The notes under the pieces are model-generated. The model worked only from the letters and a program-made list of their open reading frames with translations, searched no databases and was not told the DNA's origin. This document shows, one piece after another, positions 1,795-16,700 of a DNA stretch of 53,648 nucleotides; position 1 is the first letter of the stretch, and every line of letters begins with the position of its first letter. The DNA is from Trichinella spiralis. Taxonomy: Eukaryota. Where the stretch lies: the NCBI RefSeq assembly GCF_000181795.1, contig NW_003526948.1:711935-765582 (forward strand), written 5' to 3'. Made by a program: the position numbers and the translations under genes.

Positions 1795-3577
1795 TTACTT
1801 TTTCTTAGGCTTCAATGCAACTTGCTCCACACTGGTGAAAAAATCATCATCAGCCAAATTCAGCATTAAACTCCCAGTATTCAAATAGGCACGGTTAGCT
1901 GACTGAGCAAGCTAAAATAAAGCATTATTTTCCATTATTTATATCTACACTTTAGAAAAAAAATTCTCACCGTTCGTGCAATGTTCTGTGCAGCTCTTAT
2001 TTTTCTCAATTTCAAATATCCGGGATCCTTCCCTAGCGCTTCACCAATCTATCATACAAACAGAATATTTACATATATTTAAATTACACACACTTAAATT
2101 TATAAATCTTTCAATGTATGGGATCTCAGATTACTAAAGATGAAAATCATTTCTCAATTTCTGTTAACTTTGTTTTCGTTGAATGTCAGCGCAGGAATGG
2201 TTACAGATAAGACTGTGTGATAAAAAGCGCTTCATTATGTCAGTCTGATTTTACAGCGAACAAGAACTCTTCTCACTCCGCCAAGATTTCAGACTTTGTA
2301 AAATATTATTATACTTTCAACGCTCATAGAAAATTTTTCGTCACAGACCACAACAATCACGTAAATATTGCATGAGAAAAAAACATACAAAGATTTTAGA
2401 ATACAAAGAACTGCATACCAATTTCGCTGCTTGAGCTTCTCCTTGAGCTTGCACAATTTTCTGCTGCCTTTCTTGCTTGGAACGTTCAACGACAAATGCC
2501 GCTCTTTGCGCTTCTTGCGCAGCTACTTGTTTCGCTTCAACAGCTTGAGTATATTCACGTCCAAAAGACAGTTCTGTAATTGAAACATCGTCGAGAATGA
2601 TGTGAAAATCTCTCGCTCTTTCCACAAGTTGCTTTCGAATTAACAAAGATACTTGCTGACGCTGAGTGATCAACTGTGAAGCGTTGAACTTCGCCACAAC
2701 ACTCTTTAAAACCTAAATTATGAAATAATAGTACACAGTTATTAAGCATTGTATGCAAAATTAATATATCGCATTAGCAAAATAAACAAAATCATATTAA
2801 CTAATCAATAAATATCATTTATATTAATTTTATTTAAATAAAAAAATTACTTCATTGATGATAGATGGTAGAACTCTTTCATCCCAATCGACACCCAGTG
2901 TTCGGTATATTTTCGGTAAATATGCCGCGTCTGGTCGTGATAAAACGCGCAAAGAAATATTCACCATTTGCAAATCTAAATAACCATTTATGCCGAAAAT
3001 TGAATTATTAATAAAACTATTTTCACGCCTACGGCTCACAGCCCACGCATTCACACTACACCTAATATAATCACATTTTTATTAAGGAAATGAAAATATT
3101 CGTTCATTAAAAATAATGTTATTATATTTTAACACGATCGATAACACAATCAACTTATTGCTAAAGTATATTCCAGCTTATAATATAATCATAATAAAGT
3201 TATATTTATATGGTATAACATCTAGCATACCCTTGCTGCCAGTTGGACTGGTGACTTTATGTGGTCTGGCGCGTACATCGTAGATAATTGGATAGTGCAA
3301 CCAAGGAATTCGAAAATGAAGTCCTTCAGTAAAAATTTCTTTCCCAACACCGGAAATTCGACTGAAAACAATTGCTCTGTGTCCACCATCAACTTAAAGT
3401 TATACGATATATGATTAAGCTTCATGTTAAATTTATGATTTTAATTTTACCTGTGTAAAAACTTTGAGACAATGCGTAAGTTAAGCCAGTGGCACCTGCC
3501 AAAAGTCCAATACCGGCTGACAAACCTTTTGGGTTTCGTAACATTCGGCTCATTAAGTCCATTACTTTATCTGCCAT
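1795..3577 (-). CDS. PHB2: Prohibitin-2 (SPFH domain), 6 exons
   Basis: Exons 3577-3451, 3392-3231, 2975-2851, 2712-2419, 2048-1971 and 1911-1795, all with GT-AG introns. Motifs [57 protein letters not shown] and [34 protein letters not shown]. Confidence 0.95.
2121..2349 (-). ncRNA. Intronic composite box C/D-H/ACA small Cajal-body RNA (U85/U89-like), predicted guide for U5 snRNA Cm45 and Psi46
   Basis: On the minus strand: C box GTGACGA (2344-2338); hairpin GTCTGA/TCAGAC with pocket AATCTT + GTAAAA and TGAG in the apical part (2294-2243); H box ACATAA (2240-2235); second hairpin AGCGC/GCGCT then ACA (2186-2184); guide ATCTTTAGTAA (2141-2131); D box CTGA (2129-2126); short terminal stem GGTC/GATC. 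Confidence 0.88.
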
Positions 3578-4246: not shown

Positions 4247-5639
4247 ATGGCAGAGAATGATTTTTCTCGATGGTATAGAAGCGTTCCAGAAATTACACGA
4301 TATTGGTTTTCTGGAACCGTTGTTTTGCCAATGTTGGTTCGTTTTCGACTTCTTGACTCATATTGGCTTTTCCTGGACTATGATCTAGTTTTTCATAAGC
4401 TTCAGGTTCACTTAGAATTATACTTATTTTCGCCTATTTCATCATTTTATTTTTCAGATATGGCGCATAGTTACTGCGCTATTTTATTATCCTATTACAC
4501 CTCAAACTGGATTCCAGTATTTGATTTTGCTCTACTTTTTATACAGCTACTCTCTGAAATTAGAAACGGGTAATTTTTTAATTTTTGCACTATTGTGATT
4601 CACGATTTACTAAATATGTTTTGGTTTAGATGCATTTCGAGATAAGAAAGCCGATTATCTGTTCATGTTGATATTTAATTGGTTATCTGCTACTGTAAGC
4701 AATTTATATCGTATATTTTAGTGGTTTTACCGTTTCGCTAATTGTTTTTTACTTTAACTTTTGATAAAATTACATAAGACAGAGCAGGAATGTTTGCTAT
4801 TTTATGTCATCTTATTGTGTTTAGGTTATTGCTTTCTTTTGCAACATACCTATTCTTCCGGAACCTATGATACTGAGCATTTTGTATGTTTGGTGTCAGT
4901 TGAATAAAGATATGATCGTTCCGTTCTGGTTTGGTACCTATTTCAAAGCACTTTATCTTCCTTGGGCTCTGATGTTTTTCAACATGATACTTCGTGGAGG
5001 GTAATTATCATCTATAATATATATATATATATACATTTCTTTTTTCTTCTTTCAGAGGATTCAACGAGCTTGTTGGAATCCTGGTTGGACACCTTTACTT
5101 CTTTCTGGCTATCAAATATCCTCAAGAATTTGGAGGAAGATCGTTTTTGCAGACGCCGAAATTTTTGTAAGCAAAATTCAGTGACTAATAGTTGAATCAT
5201 AAGTTGATTTTGATATGATTCTTTGATAAGATTACTGTAGCGTTTGATAAAGGAATGCAAGTAACTATTTTCATAACACCTACTGTTACTACTGTAACAT
5301 TTTAGTGTTAATATTTTAATGTTTAATTTAAAAGATTGTTTTCAAGTTAATATGTTCATTATTTAAGTTAGTCATTTATGGGTGTTATTTTAACATGCAA
5401 GCGGATGAATAATAAATCGCTGAATAAATATTAGATGGAGTTGAATAATTTTTTTAAGAACTGAAGTTTGACGTTCAGTTGAATTGCGTGCTGATATGAA
5501 TTGGTAACTTTTCAGGGAGCGCTTATTTCCATCTCGTCAAGGTTTTCGTGCATTCGGTCAAAATGGCGGAGTGAGAGGCAGAAATGACAGTTCAGATCAA
5601 CATCGTTGGGGCCGCGGTTATGCTGTTGGCGGAAATTGA
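4247..5639 (+). CDS. DERL1: Derlin-1 (ERAD rhomboid pseudoprotease), about 6 exons
   Basis: MAENDFSRWYRSVPEITRYWF..., QIWRIVTA, FLYSYSLKLETDAF...ADYLFMLIFNW, LYVWCQLNKDMIVPFWFGTYFKALYLPWAL, LVGILVGHLYFFLAIKYPQEFGG. The C-terminus HRWGRGYAVGGN* resembles the SHP box. Confidence 0.92.
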
Positions 5640-5781
5640 ACAGTGGTCATTAACAGTTCTTTTGTTAAATAAAGCCCATAAAATATTAGCATAGAATGGC
5701 AACATTTAGGGTGTTAGCTTGTTCAATTGAATAAAGTGATTGAGAAACATGTTGTGTTCAGCTTGTTTATTTTCTTTTTGA

Positions 5782-10613: not shown

Positions 10614-10688
<75 letters not shown>
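10614..10688. repeat. (CA)n microsatellite, about 37 units
   Basis: Perfect CA run. Confidence 0.98.
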
Positions 10689-10691
<3 letters not shown>

Positions 10692-13399
10692 CATCACAAT
10701 GAAATATTTGTAATATTATTGTAATGTAAACATTAAACTAAACTGTATCTACAAGTTGTTATTTCGACTTATTAAATTATTATTGTGTTGTATTATTTAA
10801 ATGCAAACATTTTTGAAACCAATGAGCAAATTATGATAAATATTTGACAGTTTGCTCCTCATTATCATTGATCATTAACTAAATCGATTCATATGTTATC
10901 ATAATTTATAATGTGGGCGTTGAATTCATTATTCGATGAAACTGGTGAATATTTTAGAAAAAAAGAGAATTTTTCATGGGAATAATTAATTGAATATTTC
11001 CAAAATAATTTTCTTACCTTCTATCTGTTGCTCTTTGGAGTAACTTGTTGGCTTCATTTAACAAACCTTTTCTGAACTGCTGGCTAAGAATACCACAAGT
11101 TCTTTTTTAATTATAATTTTGCAATTTTTAAAAATTTTCATAATTCCACATTCTACAAACGGTTGATTTCATACTTTTCCAAAACTGAATTTCCCTACTA
11201 AGCTAGTGAACAACATCGAAGAGTTTTCCATTAATGAACACGTTTGATAAATGTAAGTCATTTTGAAGGAAGTATAAAAATTTGAATAAATACATAGACG
11301 CTGAAAGCAATTAAGATTGATATGCAGGAGCTTTTGTTTGAATAAGATAACAAACAGAAAATCAGGACAGGTAAAATTTGATGCTGTTAAGTCCACTTTT
11401 ATAGATAGACTTGTTAGTAATAATGAAAGTAGTCGAAAGCCATGGAAGAAAAAAATTGCATGTTTTCCGCAAAATGTTCAATTTGCATACAGCATGCATT
11501 AAAAAATGACAAAAGTGCAACAAGTTCATTTACTTTTTAGCATAAATTTTTTATCATCAATTTTCTTTTTAACTACAATTCTGTGATGATGCTCATTTTC
11601 TCAGATAAGGTTGTTAATTTGACTATGGTAATTCAGTGTATTCAAGTGCAAGTAATTAAAAAGTTATTTTAAAAAAATTGCATTTTTGAGTATAAAATGA
11701 TAATAGCACTGATTATAAAATTAATTAGATGTGCATCTATTAAAAGTGAGAAGTTATATTTCAATTCATTGTTGCAATTTTGACACACTGTACAAATAAT
11801 GAAGAAGGTGATGCAGTAAGTAGCAACATGTGACAAAAATACTTGGTTTGTTGCAATACTGTTTGCACTGAGGCAAGGGAAGAGCAGTGTGCAACAAATA
11901 TTTTCTATTGAATAAGAAAAGCGTGTACTGTTTCTTTGGTTTTCGATAAGCTTCATTCCATCTTGACCTAATTATTACCAATCAGTGTGCAATTCTTGCT
12001 TTTGTACATCCATGCACAGGTAGGTTATATAAAGTGATCGCCTATTCAGTGCATCTGTTTGAAGAAAGTCTCTTCAAGTGAAAACTACATTTCACGTTCT
12101 TTATATTCTTATTTATCACTGCGTGAGAAAAGACTCATAATTTTAACAGCTGTAATCTGATGGCAAAGTATATTCATTGGGAAACACTGACCAACGTGAA
12201 GAGCAGCATTGTTTGCCAATGGTCTAAGTTGACCCAACGTCTGTCAAAAAAATGAATAATAAGTACAAAATCTTGCGCAAATAATGGAAATTATTTTCAG
12301 TTTTATTTTTAAAATAAAGTAGCTTGGTTTTCAAATGGAAAATATTCCACATGTTCATTGGAAAAGGGGGCATCATTTCAATGCTGTTTTGATAATATTA
12401 TTTTTCTTTCCAGCTGATTCAAAATAAGCATAAAAAAGCAAGAGAAAATGCAGTATCAAAATCTATTTTATCAAAATTCATATTTGCCAATCATTAAAAT
12501 CACTAGTAAAAGTAAAAGAGTTGATAAATGATTATATAGAACAACCGTTGCCGTTGTGTTGACAGTGCACAGAAAGGGTTACATTAAAATTTAAAACGGA
12601 TGAGACATTGTTGCGTGACAGAGCTCGTTTAGTCAAAGCTAATTATACATAACTAGCAAGGTGGCAAGTTTGGGAAGAGAGGATTTATTGTTTTCCATAG
12701 GTCAAACATCGCTTAGAATGTTGTTCTGATGTGTAATGTTTTAACAGTATGCATATTAATTATTTTTGAATTATTGATGACGATCAGTAATTAATTTGTG
12801 CTTCAGCATGTTTTCCAACATTTAGCACTTTCAGCTTGTAGCTTTATCAATCGAAATCATACTTGATGCATGCTTCAACTGTTGATCCTTGACTGGTATT
12901 AGAAATTTTTCTAAAAAAATAAATATATAATTTTCAAACGGTAATAGAAAACAAACTTCTTCAGAAAGAACTTTCAACATATCTATAATTTTTTTTACTA
13001 GATATGAAGTAAAAGCAATGTCTAAATGGCAGTGCTTTACATTTTATGCCGTTACTAAAATAATTACGCTTTTAACTTTTCATTTAGTAGCAATTCAGTA
13101 CAATTTTATGAAATATTATTATATGAATGACCAATTTGAAACAAACAATGGTCATTATAGAAAGTTATTGAATTAGATTAATTGAAACAATCATTGAAAG
13201 TTTTCCTTTTGCATGAAATATTGAATAGTGGATATTGGGTGAACAAATGAATGTGTAATGTTGAAGTGGACATTGTTAATTAAGAGGTAAGGAAAAGCAC
13301 TGTTGCCGTTTCAAATGTAAGACTTCAATTAGTAGATGCTTAGCGTGGTCCAAAGTGTCGTTTGCCATTGCATTCTGTGCTTTTTGCGTTGGTCATCAA

Positions 13400-13720: not shown

Positions 13721-16700
13721 GCGCAAACTCACTTCATCATGTTTAACTAGCCATCCTAAGAGAACCGCTTATTTAGTATCTTATTCTTATATTTGTTTAA
13801 CTAATTTTATACTAAATCAAGAAAAATTATCCGACTTAGATAATTTTGGCCATTGTACAGAATCAACTTTATAAAACAGCTATTTGATGGCAAGCAATTT
13901 TGAGGATGTCACGATTTTATTTATTTCCGTAAAATAGCTGTGTGAAGGCTTAATATGACTATTGCAAAGCATGTTTATCAGAAAAAAGAGCTGACTCTTG
14001 AAATTTACAATCTATAAAAAATTTGAAACATTTTCAAACATGTATCAGAGTACAGCAAGTGCTATTCAAATGGCTATCATTCAGCGTCTGTAATTGAGAA
14101 ATTGATGAAGGCGTTTTTACGCCTGTTGTGCACCTTGAACGACGGGACATCCTGATGCCTCTTGAATATTTCAAAAGAAAAGCGTAAACGTTGGTTGCAA
14201 AGAGGCGTGTCATCTGCGGTCGATTCAAATTAAGCACTGCAAAGCTTAGCAACGCTTGTCACGACCGAACAAATGCCAAATTGTGCAACAGCGTTTATTT
14301 TTTCCCTTTTTACAGGGTTTATTTTAAATATAAATTGAAGCCTCTTTTTTTGTCTTTATTTTTATTACTTTTCTTCAATGTTCAATTTTTCTTAAATGCA
14401 ATAAATATTAATTTTGCTTGAAAGCTAAACTGTTTTCATATAAGTGACCATTCATGTGTACAACGTGTTGCCAATCCAAGATTGCTTTATTTGTGGTTAG
14501 AATGAAGCTCAATAATGCTTTTTGCTTGGCCGGCACCAACCAAATTATTGAATTTGCTCTATGCTTTTGGGCAACCTGCAACCTTGCCATACTGCTGCCC
14601 ATTGGGGCGTAGTGTTGGGAACGATATACATCTTTGAATCCAGCTTTCACTTGCGCGTCTCTTTTGCTTCCTATTTCTCTTCTCAACAATTTCCAACTGC
14701 TGTTTATTCAACCAAAGCTTACTGCTGCTCGATTGATTTGCTTACATTGTCTGAAATTGTAATACACTTATGGAACTCCCAAACAATGCAAAGGGTGAAC
14801 AAGAGCAAAATACAAAAAAATTATTTTAATGGAAAATAGATTTTTGAAAATATCCTTTGATTAATACATATGCAACATTTAACTGACTGCTCTGTTAGAT
14901 GTGTAGATGTTTTGTCTTAAGAAACAATTATAAAAACAGTAATTCTGATGCAATTCAAATGTTACTAATTAGCATTTCATAAGATGAGTTCTCATGAAAG
15001 TCAGGAAGTAATTTCAAATATAACAGAATAATAAAAAAAATCACTATAATTTTGTAAATATCATATTAAAATTCAACTTAGACGTTTAAGAGTAAAAGAA
15101 GTTTCTGTGAGTTTTCAAACTTTATATTTTCATCATTTGAAAAGTAACAGAATATAATGTAGTGATGTAATACTTTCAAATTTGCAAACAATGTATATAT
15201 AATAACGCTTAGTAAGAAAAAGTTCATCTTTAAAATGTATAAAGAAATAAATACATTTTTTACGTAAAGTTATGGATTAAAAAAATAATAATAAAATTGA
15301 TGTAGTCCAATCATTAGATAGCTATTTGTGTTAGTAGAATTACTGTAAAGTAAAAATGCAAAGAAATAAGAATAGCAATAAAAGGCGTAGATTTGGTCGA
15401 TTGGAGAAATTTTGAAATTAGCCACCCGTTTTGGCTTCAACGCGAAAACTGTATTTTGTCATTAGCAAGTGCGGATAGCAAAAGGCAAGAATGTATCCTT
15501 AGCGATGCATTGATTGTGTTGAAATGTTTTGATTTAGAATAATGGCACTTTCATCATCTATTTTCACCTCAAAAGGTCTAAATTGCGCGTCATCAATGTT
15601 GTAAGTTCTCAACAGCTGTGCTGCGGAACTGCCGTTAAATGACTGGACAAATAGCTGCAAGTGAGACGAAATGCGTTTCATGCAGTCGCAATTTCGTCGA
15701 TTGTTGTACTTGAATTGGAGCGGCGGTTATAGCGACGTCCGATTCAAGCTGTTTTGTGGACGGGCGTGATCGATGCAACCCACTCGAACTACGACAACCA
15801 TTTAAACGTGGCCTCTTCAAGCGGCTTAGCCAAGCAGTACGGCTGATGATCGTTCTGTACTATGCGCCTGTCAAATTTAGGAGACCCATTAGTGAACGAC
15901 GGTCGAGGACCATGCACTCGACCGCCTTAAGTAAACTCCACCCACGCACGCGTGATCTGCTAACTGCACCCAAATATGCTTTTCATTTGCGTATATTTAA
16001 TATATTTGCACCATCACAGAAAAAAGCAACAGCAACAACAAAAGTGTGAATATTTGCTATAGAAATTATGCAATAAAAAAATCTTTTCTGTTTATACTCT
16101 ATACTGTAATTTCTGATGAAATTATTTCTCAACTTTTGCATCTATATATTTCTGCAGACAGTATTTCTGAAAAATGATGAAATTGAAAATGAATGCAATG
16201 CAAATTTTTCTCAAATAAGCCTTCTGACACTGTTCATTTTTATGAATAATAATATCAGCAGAATTGCACTGATGTTTCTACAATACTATGCTTTGCTTTT
16301 AAAATTGTCTTTTAATTTCTACACCCTAACTGTACAAACTTAATCTTCTTCCTTTTTTTACACTTTTTCTAATTAATAAACCGTATACTAAAATTTAATC
16401 ATGCATAATTCATTTTCTAAAGTAGTATTACAACGCTTATGTAGAATGCACAAAAAAACCAGCTGCTTGGATAAGAATATTAAACTTTTTAACTTATAAA
16501 TAGTATTGCTGCAAATTTACAACTTTTCTATAATGGAATTTAATTATCATTTAATGAACTGAAGAAATTAGATGACTTTTTAATAAATATGAAAGTTTTA
16601 TTTGTATTTTGTACAAATACAAATTACGGTTGTTGTGAAAAGGGATAAGTGTGAAAAATAAAAAAAGCAAGCCTTTGTAATAATGTGACAAATGGTAAGT

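Follow-up and report, generated by a model that had tools for sequence, protein, structure and literature searches.

A U85-type composite scaRNA gene in an ancient, positionally conserved intron of the prohibitin-2 gene of Trichinella

U85 (SCARNA10; Rfam RF01296), known from human, Xenopus, chicken and Drosophila (snoRNA:MeU5-C46), joins a box C/D and a box H/ACA part in one composite RNA. The host gene of human U85 we take to be NCAPD2. According to passages of PMC5733568, U85 carries a D-box guide for C45 of the U5 snRNA and a first-hairpin pocket for U46 of the same RNA. PMC6984369 describes SCARNA10 broadly as conserved in vertebrates as well as invertebrates, and passages of PMC3884663 and PMC4053861, which name no host, confirm the Drosophila RNA. 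Chicken U85 lies in NCAPD2 intron 3 (excerpt of PMC2653536). SCARNA12 (U89) is placed in intron 6 of human PHB2 by an excerpt of PMC12995542, in agreement with the initial annotation, which had given a PHB2 intron as its home, and in excerpts of that paper and of PMC10618143 it is credited only with guiding Psi46 of U5. In rows of PMC6984369, human U85 stands 457 kb from SCARNA12, and in Xenopus scaRNA12 and two copies of U85 all lie inside 4.4 kb (chr7:1.659-1.663 Mb), these rows naming no host. In addition, human PHB2 and fly CG15081, that is l(2)03709, share an orthologous AT-AC intron of U12 type (Table 2 of PMC2831892, with excerpts of PMC2952598 and PMC3695530). In the present study, we describe a U85-type RNA gene in PHB2 of Trichinella, in an intron that shares its codon and phase with the AT-AC minor intron of insects and other eukaryotes.

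The window analysed here, a stretch of 53,648 nucleotides, is Trichinella DNA, since the protein encoded by the exon at 2712-2419 is 100% identical to proteins of T. nativa and T. patagoniensis; its identity to the proteins of T. murrelli and T. spiralis is 99%. The coding gene for PHB2 (prohibitin-2), recognized by its Band_7 Pfam domain and delimited by tblastn and a boundary search, occupies 1795..3577 on the minus strand and is divided into six exons (3577-3451, 3392-3231, 2975-2851, 2712-2419, 2048-1971 and 1911-1795), which together supply 300 codons plus a stop. The host intron is intron 4 (2049..2418, minus strand). It is 370 nt long with GT-AG ends, and the boundary search placed it in phase 0 after codon 236 (AQAAKL), just as the initial annotation had it after ...EAQAAKL. 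This position aligns with human M237; in the Trichuris orthologue (P0009), which matches human PHB2 with E 8.5e-129 and PHB1 with 5e-78, it is AAKM that is aligned with M237. Three of the remaining four PHB2 introns of the window have 58-138 nt and one has 255 nt. The latter, intron 2 (2976-3230, minus strand), holds a U12-branch-like motif about 110 nt before its end and is in part translated in the T. spiralis protein model P0005. A second small RNA in this intron was considered and rejected, its Rfam matches having E 1.9 or worse and its fold a z of -0.47.

Within intron 4 lies a gene for a U85-type composite box C/D-H/ACA scaRNA (2121..2349, minus strand), which is about 229 nt long with ends predicted from a terminal stem. 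The Rfam model snoU85 (RF01296) matches 2349-2121 over its full span with 36.1 bits, at E 7.7e-8 in a search of a 701-nt stretch and 5.9e-6 in the whole window. This is the best family match and the only convincing RNA family match in the window; one further overlapping match of the same clan was suppressed by the search filter. The score lies below the gathering score of 41, hence a scan of the window at the gathering threshold returned 0 matches. The hairpin described by R1, a model that we built from 11 RNA sequences, is present once in the window, in single copy.

All parts of the RNA are on the minus strand. A 4-pair terminal stem, one arm of which (2349-2346) precedes box C, is closed by this box, a variant with one mismatch to RUGAUGA (2338..2344), and by box D, CUGA (2126..2129), which stands 77 nt before the acceptor, the distance in ten other copies being 68-102 nt. 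Both boxes enclose an H/ACA domain of the order hairpin, box H, hairpin, box ACA. In hairpin 1, which shows covariation, the 5' strand of the pseudouridylation pocket (2283..2290) is complementary to U5 A48-C55 and the 3' strand (2249..2254) to U5 U40-C45, and U46-A47 are left unpaired. The upper stem and apical loop between them (2255..2282) were read from the fold and are 96% paired over the 11 sequences. The AGAG at the tip of hairpin 1 (2270-2267) may serve as a CAB box, for which we assumed the consensus ugAG; no CAB-like motif was seen in the fold of hairpin 2. Box H (ANANNA) is at 2235..2240, and a short second hairpin (2231-2188), read from the fold, is followed by a directly read box ACA (2186-2184), the two together spanning 2184..2231. 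The H/ACA part (2186-2296) folds with a z of -2.14, and 6 of 200 shuffles fold equally well; folding of the whole RNA is no better than that of shuffles (z -0.81). A candidate box C' was read directly at 2144..2150, and several other copies have a C'-like motif 5' of the guide. On inspection, the window RNA has no clear box D'. Over 11 nt, at 2131..2141, the methylation guide is complementary to U5 loop I, with the G at 2134 (D+5) opposite C45.

The composite layout and the assignment of the two guides are shared with U85. The window RNA differs from it in length (about 229 nt against 329 model positions, some 100 nt less than human U85), in its short second hairpin, in the variant box C and in its host, PHB2 instead of the NCAPD2 given for chicken U85 in the passage cited above. 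With SCARNA12 it has the host gene, probably the intron and the Psi46 guide in common; unlike SCARNA12, it has a C45 guide that is still perfect, gets its best score from the U85 model and exceeds the 143 nt of the Xenopus scaRNA12 entry. We conclude that the locus is a genuine gene for a U85-type scaRNA, housed in an old intron whose position is conserved.

For the substrate, the T. spiralis U5 loop I sequence was taken from supplement rows of PMC2396436; it is identical to the human substrate given in PMC6984369. The D-box guide forms 11 perfect pairs with T. spiralis U5, with the G at D+5 opposite C45. The pocket forms 8+6 perfect pairs around U46, with box H 14 nt downstream. Among 1000 dinucleotide shuffles of the intron, a D guide of at least 9 pairs occurred in 0, a pocket of at least 10 Watson-Crick pairs in 62 and both together in 0. 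From its base pairing, the window RNA is predicted to guide Cm45 and Psi46 in U5. Thus the U5-targeting composite RNA that the initial annotation saw inside PHB2 at 2049..2418 is borne out by the exact intron ends, the snoU85 match and the two guides; its further claim that both guide functions are kept by this copy holds only as far as base pairing goes. A decaying relic, or an RNA active in just one of its two guide roles, would fit the mismatch in box C, the score below gathering, the length about 100 nt short of human U85, the unclear D' and the uncertain CAB box, and in passages of PMC5733568 one Xenopus U85 copy in yeast methylated without pseudouridylating despite good pairing. We hold this to be very improbable, as both guides are perfect, box H keeps its 14 nt, box D lies inside the range of the other copies and no other copy exists in the window.

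To follow the intron in other genomes, metagenomes were scanned once with a pattern that joins the PHB2 exon end to an RTAH donor and is blind to lost introns and to GTG donors. The scan returned 49 loci; the pattern occurs a single time in the window and not at all in viral contigs. Nine loci (L006, L007, L024, L033, L038, L039, L041, L042 and L050) were dropped because they have no intron at the site. The 40 PHB2 introns at the codon of the window intron comprise 36 with U12-type donors (34 AT and 2 GT) and four with U2-type donors. A U12-type intron at this codon is present in five protist loci (L015, L020, L035, L044 and L047), and the intron is therefore older than animals. It also left traces in protein databases, since 26 of 301 fetched PHB2 proteins, including those of named insects and of the bivalve Solemya, contain IS(F/L), which arises where the AT-AC donor of this intron is read through. 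The proteins with such a read-through include P0014, P0016, P0018, P0022, P0050 and P0301, and it is a common gene-prediction error at the PHB2 minor intron. AT-AA ends in place of AT-AC are seen in the minor intron of L015, L020, L030, L047 and L053, two of them animal loci and three of them from protists. In the comparison of intron positions that the initial annotation had proposed, the codon of the window intron is that of the AT-AC minor intron in PHB2 of other animals, with the human position probably the same, and its reading was not refuted.

The two-guide RNA is also present in the intermediate lineages where the initial annotation had suggested a search, namely in ten of the 40 introns: four from mites, three from animals of the insect/crustacean clade and three from annelid-like animals. 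In each of the ten, the D guide has 9-12 pairs and its end lies 68-102 nt upstream of the acceptor; nine pass the pocket test as well, L029 having a U where a G is needed. Their mutual identity is at most 61%. Of the 49 loci, 29 were searched with Rfam; snoU85 matched 5 of 14 loci in one set (56.6, 42.9, 42.6, 32.0 and 24.5 bits, all among the RNA-bearing ten, with three above the gathering score) and 0 of 15 in the second set. The alignment of the whole RNA was too poor for use, and covariation was evaluated for hairpin 1 in the window copy and the ten others, 11 sequences in all: 30 cells are altered on both sides, a number equalled in 0 of 500 shuffles and compared with 6-17 in slid controls. 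Across these copies the pocket strands are near-invariant and the stems variable. The lower stem is 61% paired in one fixed register, and when the register is allowed to shift, 10 of 11 sequences have 6-8 lower-stem pairs. Model R1 recovers only its own 11 sequences among 55 sources, the next match having E 1. The 5 matches that a U85 hairpin pattern had in viral contigs were rejected, as R1 scored none of these better than E 2.3.

In the counts of RNA presence and absence, from which three incomplete introns (L009, L013 and L019) were left out, the RNA is absent from 27 complete introns (19 clusters) at the same codon. These belong to termites, ants, the annelid-like L010 and L046, L043, coral-like and sponge-like animals and protists. 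Because termites, ants and L010/L046 are without the RNA, the pairing of RNA and host is patchy among bilaterians. The PHB2 intron of L010 (2655-4004) and that of L046 are of the GT-AG U12 subtype at the same codon, a subtype proposed as intermediate between AT-AC and U2 type. H/ACA-only remnants were sought in the RNA-free introns and none was found; L037 has a pocket-like match with neither a box H nor an R1 match.

The taxonomic placement of these loci was approached by trees of loci with at least 110 aligned residues, after removal of near-duplicates and of several rows for insects and protists. Among the RNA-bearing loci, L016, L022, L025 and L034 cluster with Tetranychus and Brevipalpus, both mites (SH-aLRT 87), and L029, L031 and L049 with insects (SH-aLRT 99). 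L030, L053 and L054 fall, with weak support, near annelid proteins. A search with the exon protein of L053 gave no named relative above 89%. Among the RNA-free loci, those of termites are 95-96% identical to Cryptotermes and Coptotermes, those of ants reach 97-98%, and L010/L046 are nearest to Helobdella. Two RNA-free clades were placed outside the named bilaterians; we presume them to be corals and sponges from their residue patterns, the tree holding no named cnidarian or sponge. The PHB2 tree is a poor species tree, in which nematodes stand with fish, and the phylum labels are therefore provisional. Neighbouring genes of PHB2 in these loci include a TRAF-family gene (L011, 660-1984) and, as a single long open frame, a Leo1 gene (L029, 3554-5191), neither of which fixes the taxon.

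With regard to the age of the pairing, it might precede Bilateria and go back to all animals or earlier, with the RNA lost from the coral-like, sponge-like and protist introns or with some RNA-bearing loci being non-bilaterian. The five protist loci's U12-type intron is in keeping with this, and L030 and L053 have only about 80% identity to any named protein in a comparison whose tree had no named cnidarian or sponge PHB2. Against it, both guides are missing from 8 of 8 coral-like, 4 of 4 sponge-like and 5 of 5 protist introns (several of just 69-109 nt), and L030, L053 and L054 share residues with Helobdella, lie near annelids and stand away from the coral/sponge-like clade. We consider such an early origin unlikely. 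A bilaterian age is preferred: an RNA in this PHB2 intron in mites, in other invertebrates and probably in humans makes the pairing likely to be as old as bilaterian animals.

The vertebrate side of this argument was drawn from published material, as the metagenome scan returned no vertebrate or secure deuterostome-invertebrate PHB2 locus. By its exon sizes, the human gene presumably has the exon 6/7 junction at c.711, codon 237. In a published supplement, the cloning primers for the SCARNA12 intron have CCTT after the restriction site on one side and cover CCTTAAC on the other; the former would match a U12 donor at +5 to +8 and the latter a U12 branch site. These primers, together with the published human-fly orthology, suggest that the human SCARNA12 intron is the same U12 intron as that of the window. 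It is conceivable that the protostome and vertebrate copies entered PHB2 independently, converging on a popular housekeeping host, or that SCARNA12 sits in a different PHB2 intron. U85 does appear mobile, being in NCAPD2 in chicken (in the passage already cited) and missing from the termite and ant intron; the human U12 intron is apparently numbered 5 in the excerpt of PMC2831892, whereas SCARNA12 is in intron 6 in that of PMC12995542, and the human position was deduced from publications. On the other side, all 10 metagenome copies lie in this single intron and none in another PHB2 intron of the loci examined, the SCARNA12 primers bear U12 donor and branch motifs, and a second U12 donor inside PHB2 is absent from 12 of the 13 longer loci checked (L022 has one 3.9 kb upstream), so that we give either reading very little credence. 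Overall, it is probable that PHB2 intron 4 of Trichinella holds a U85-type gene whose RNA is expected to come free on splicing and to guide both Cm45 and Psi46, likely in an intron that U85 already occupied in the protostome-deuterostome ancestor. The suggestion of the initial annotation that PHB2 may be the ancestral bilaterian host of the U85/U89 family has thus gained from the ten invertebrate copies and the homology of the intron. We regard PHB2 as a well supported ancient bilaterian host of U85, in which the human codon position and the limit to bilaterians are inferred.

The history that we propose begins with an old AT-AC minor intron that would predate the RNA. The RNA may have entered it around the base of Bilateria, and its later loss or relocation would account for termites, ants and some annelid-like animals. 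U85 would have been duplicated in vertebrates, human SCARNA12 being the degenerate copy left in place, and in amniotes the U85 copy would have moved from PHB2 to NCAPD2. In Trichinella, the intron would have switched from U12 to U2 type. By likeness to the U85 family, the spliced intron should be debranched and trimmed so that the RNA is released, and the RNA would reside in Cajal bodies. Fibrillarin on box D would then methylate C45 of U5, as U85 biology, described in part in PMC5733568, suggests, and dyskerin on box H would turn U46 into pseudouridine.

The splice signals of the window bear on the switch of intron type. Unlike the AT-AC minor intron of PHB2/l(2)03709 (CG15081), the window intron is GT-AG and has no U12 signals: its donor fails the RTATCCTT rule given in an excerpt of PMC2846911, differing at +5, +7 and +8, and no CCTTRAC or other U12 branch motif exists in the intron sequence, including its last 30 nt. 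The human SCARNA12 intron is probably of U12 type. Passages of PMC2846911 report that T. spiralis retains a minor spliceosome and other U12 introns. By this comparison, the Trichinella PHB2 intron appears to be an ancient minor intron converted from U12 to U2 type, a point that the initial annotation had missed. The same type is seen in three of the ten RNA-bearing metagenome introns (L016, L029 and L054), each from a different group (mite, insect/crustacean clade and annelid-like). U2 type is thus found in 4 of 11 RNA-bearing introns, the window included, against 0 of 19 RNA-free clusters (Fisher p 0.033 without the window and 0.012 with it, in a post hoc test on non-independent taxa with lost introns invisible to the scan). 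The incomplete L019, which has a U2-type donor and ends before the RNA site, could weaken the pattern. According to an excerpt of PMC2831892, loss of minor introns outnumbers conversion and conversion of AT-AC introns is rare. A tie between conversion and the presence of the RNA is a lead, not a result. Tentatively, one may picture U85 as resident in the PHB2 AT-AC intron since the bilaterian ancestor and anchoring it there, an intron that could not be deleted and would therefore be converted to U2 type. Lineages that erode their minor introns would then convert it rather than delete it, with four independent conversions, and SCARNA12, not SCARNA10, would mark the original locus; we rate this whole picture as possible and somewhat doubtful.

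No report of U85 in an invertebrate PHB2, or of a Trichinella U85, was found in a literature search of titles and abstract openings. Marz et al. 2011 reportedly dealt with composite scaRNAs across animals, and that work or its supplements may report the synteny. What appears new is the switch of the Trichinella intron to U2 type, and likewise of three other RNA-bearing copies. In addition, a basal nematode gains a U85 that is missed at the curated threshold of Rfam, and the usual reading of the human pair would be reversed, as the degenerate SCARNA12 likely marks the old locus. The job of the RNA is already known, therefore the surprise is moderate. The finding gives a single codon position at which to look for U85 in any animal genome. 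It also connects a guide for an snRNA with a minor intron that has been studied well, and so offers a testable case of whether an intronic RNA steers a U12 intron toward conversion and not loss.

Other observations were made in the same window. Two RTATCCTT motifs occur on the plus strand at 14850 and 15493, neither with a branch motif inside 2.5 kb. The stretch 10615-10690 is a long repeat of the dinucleotide GT, and a SCARNA7 match at 10651-10737 was set aside as spurious, being this repeat. Downstream of PHB2 and on the same (minus) strand lies a gene for cleavage stimulation factor subunit 3 (Suf/HAT; 1-1491). The database models of four Trichinella species (P0002-P0005) merge the two into a single protein of 1024-1109 aa; these fusions are likely an annotation artefact, PHB2 having its own stop at about 1795. 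On the other side, a derlin (DER1) gene (4247-5640, plus strand) is arranged head to head with PHB2, the start codons of the two genes being about 670 bases apart.
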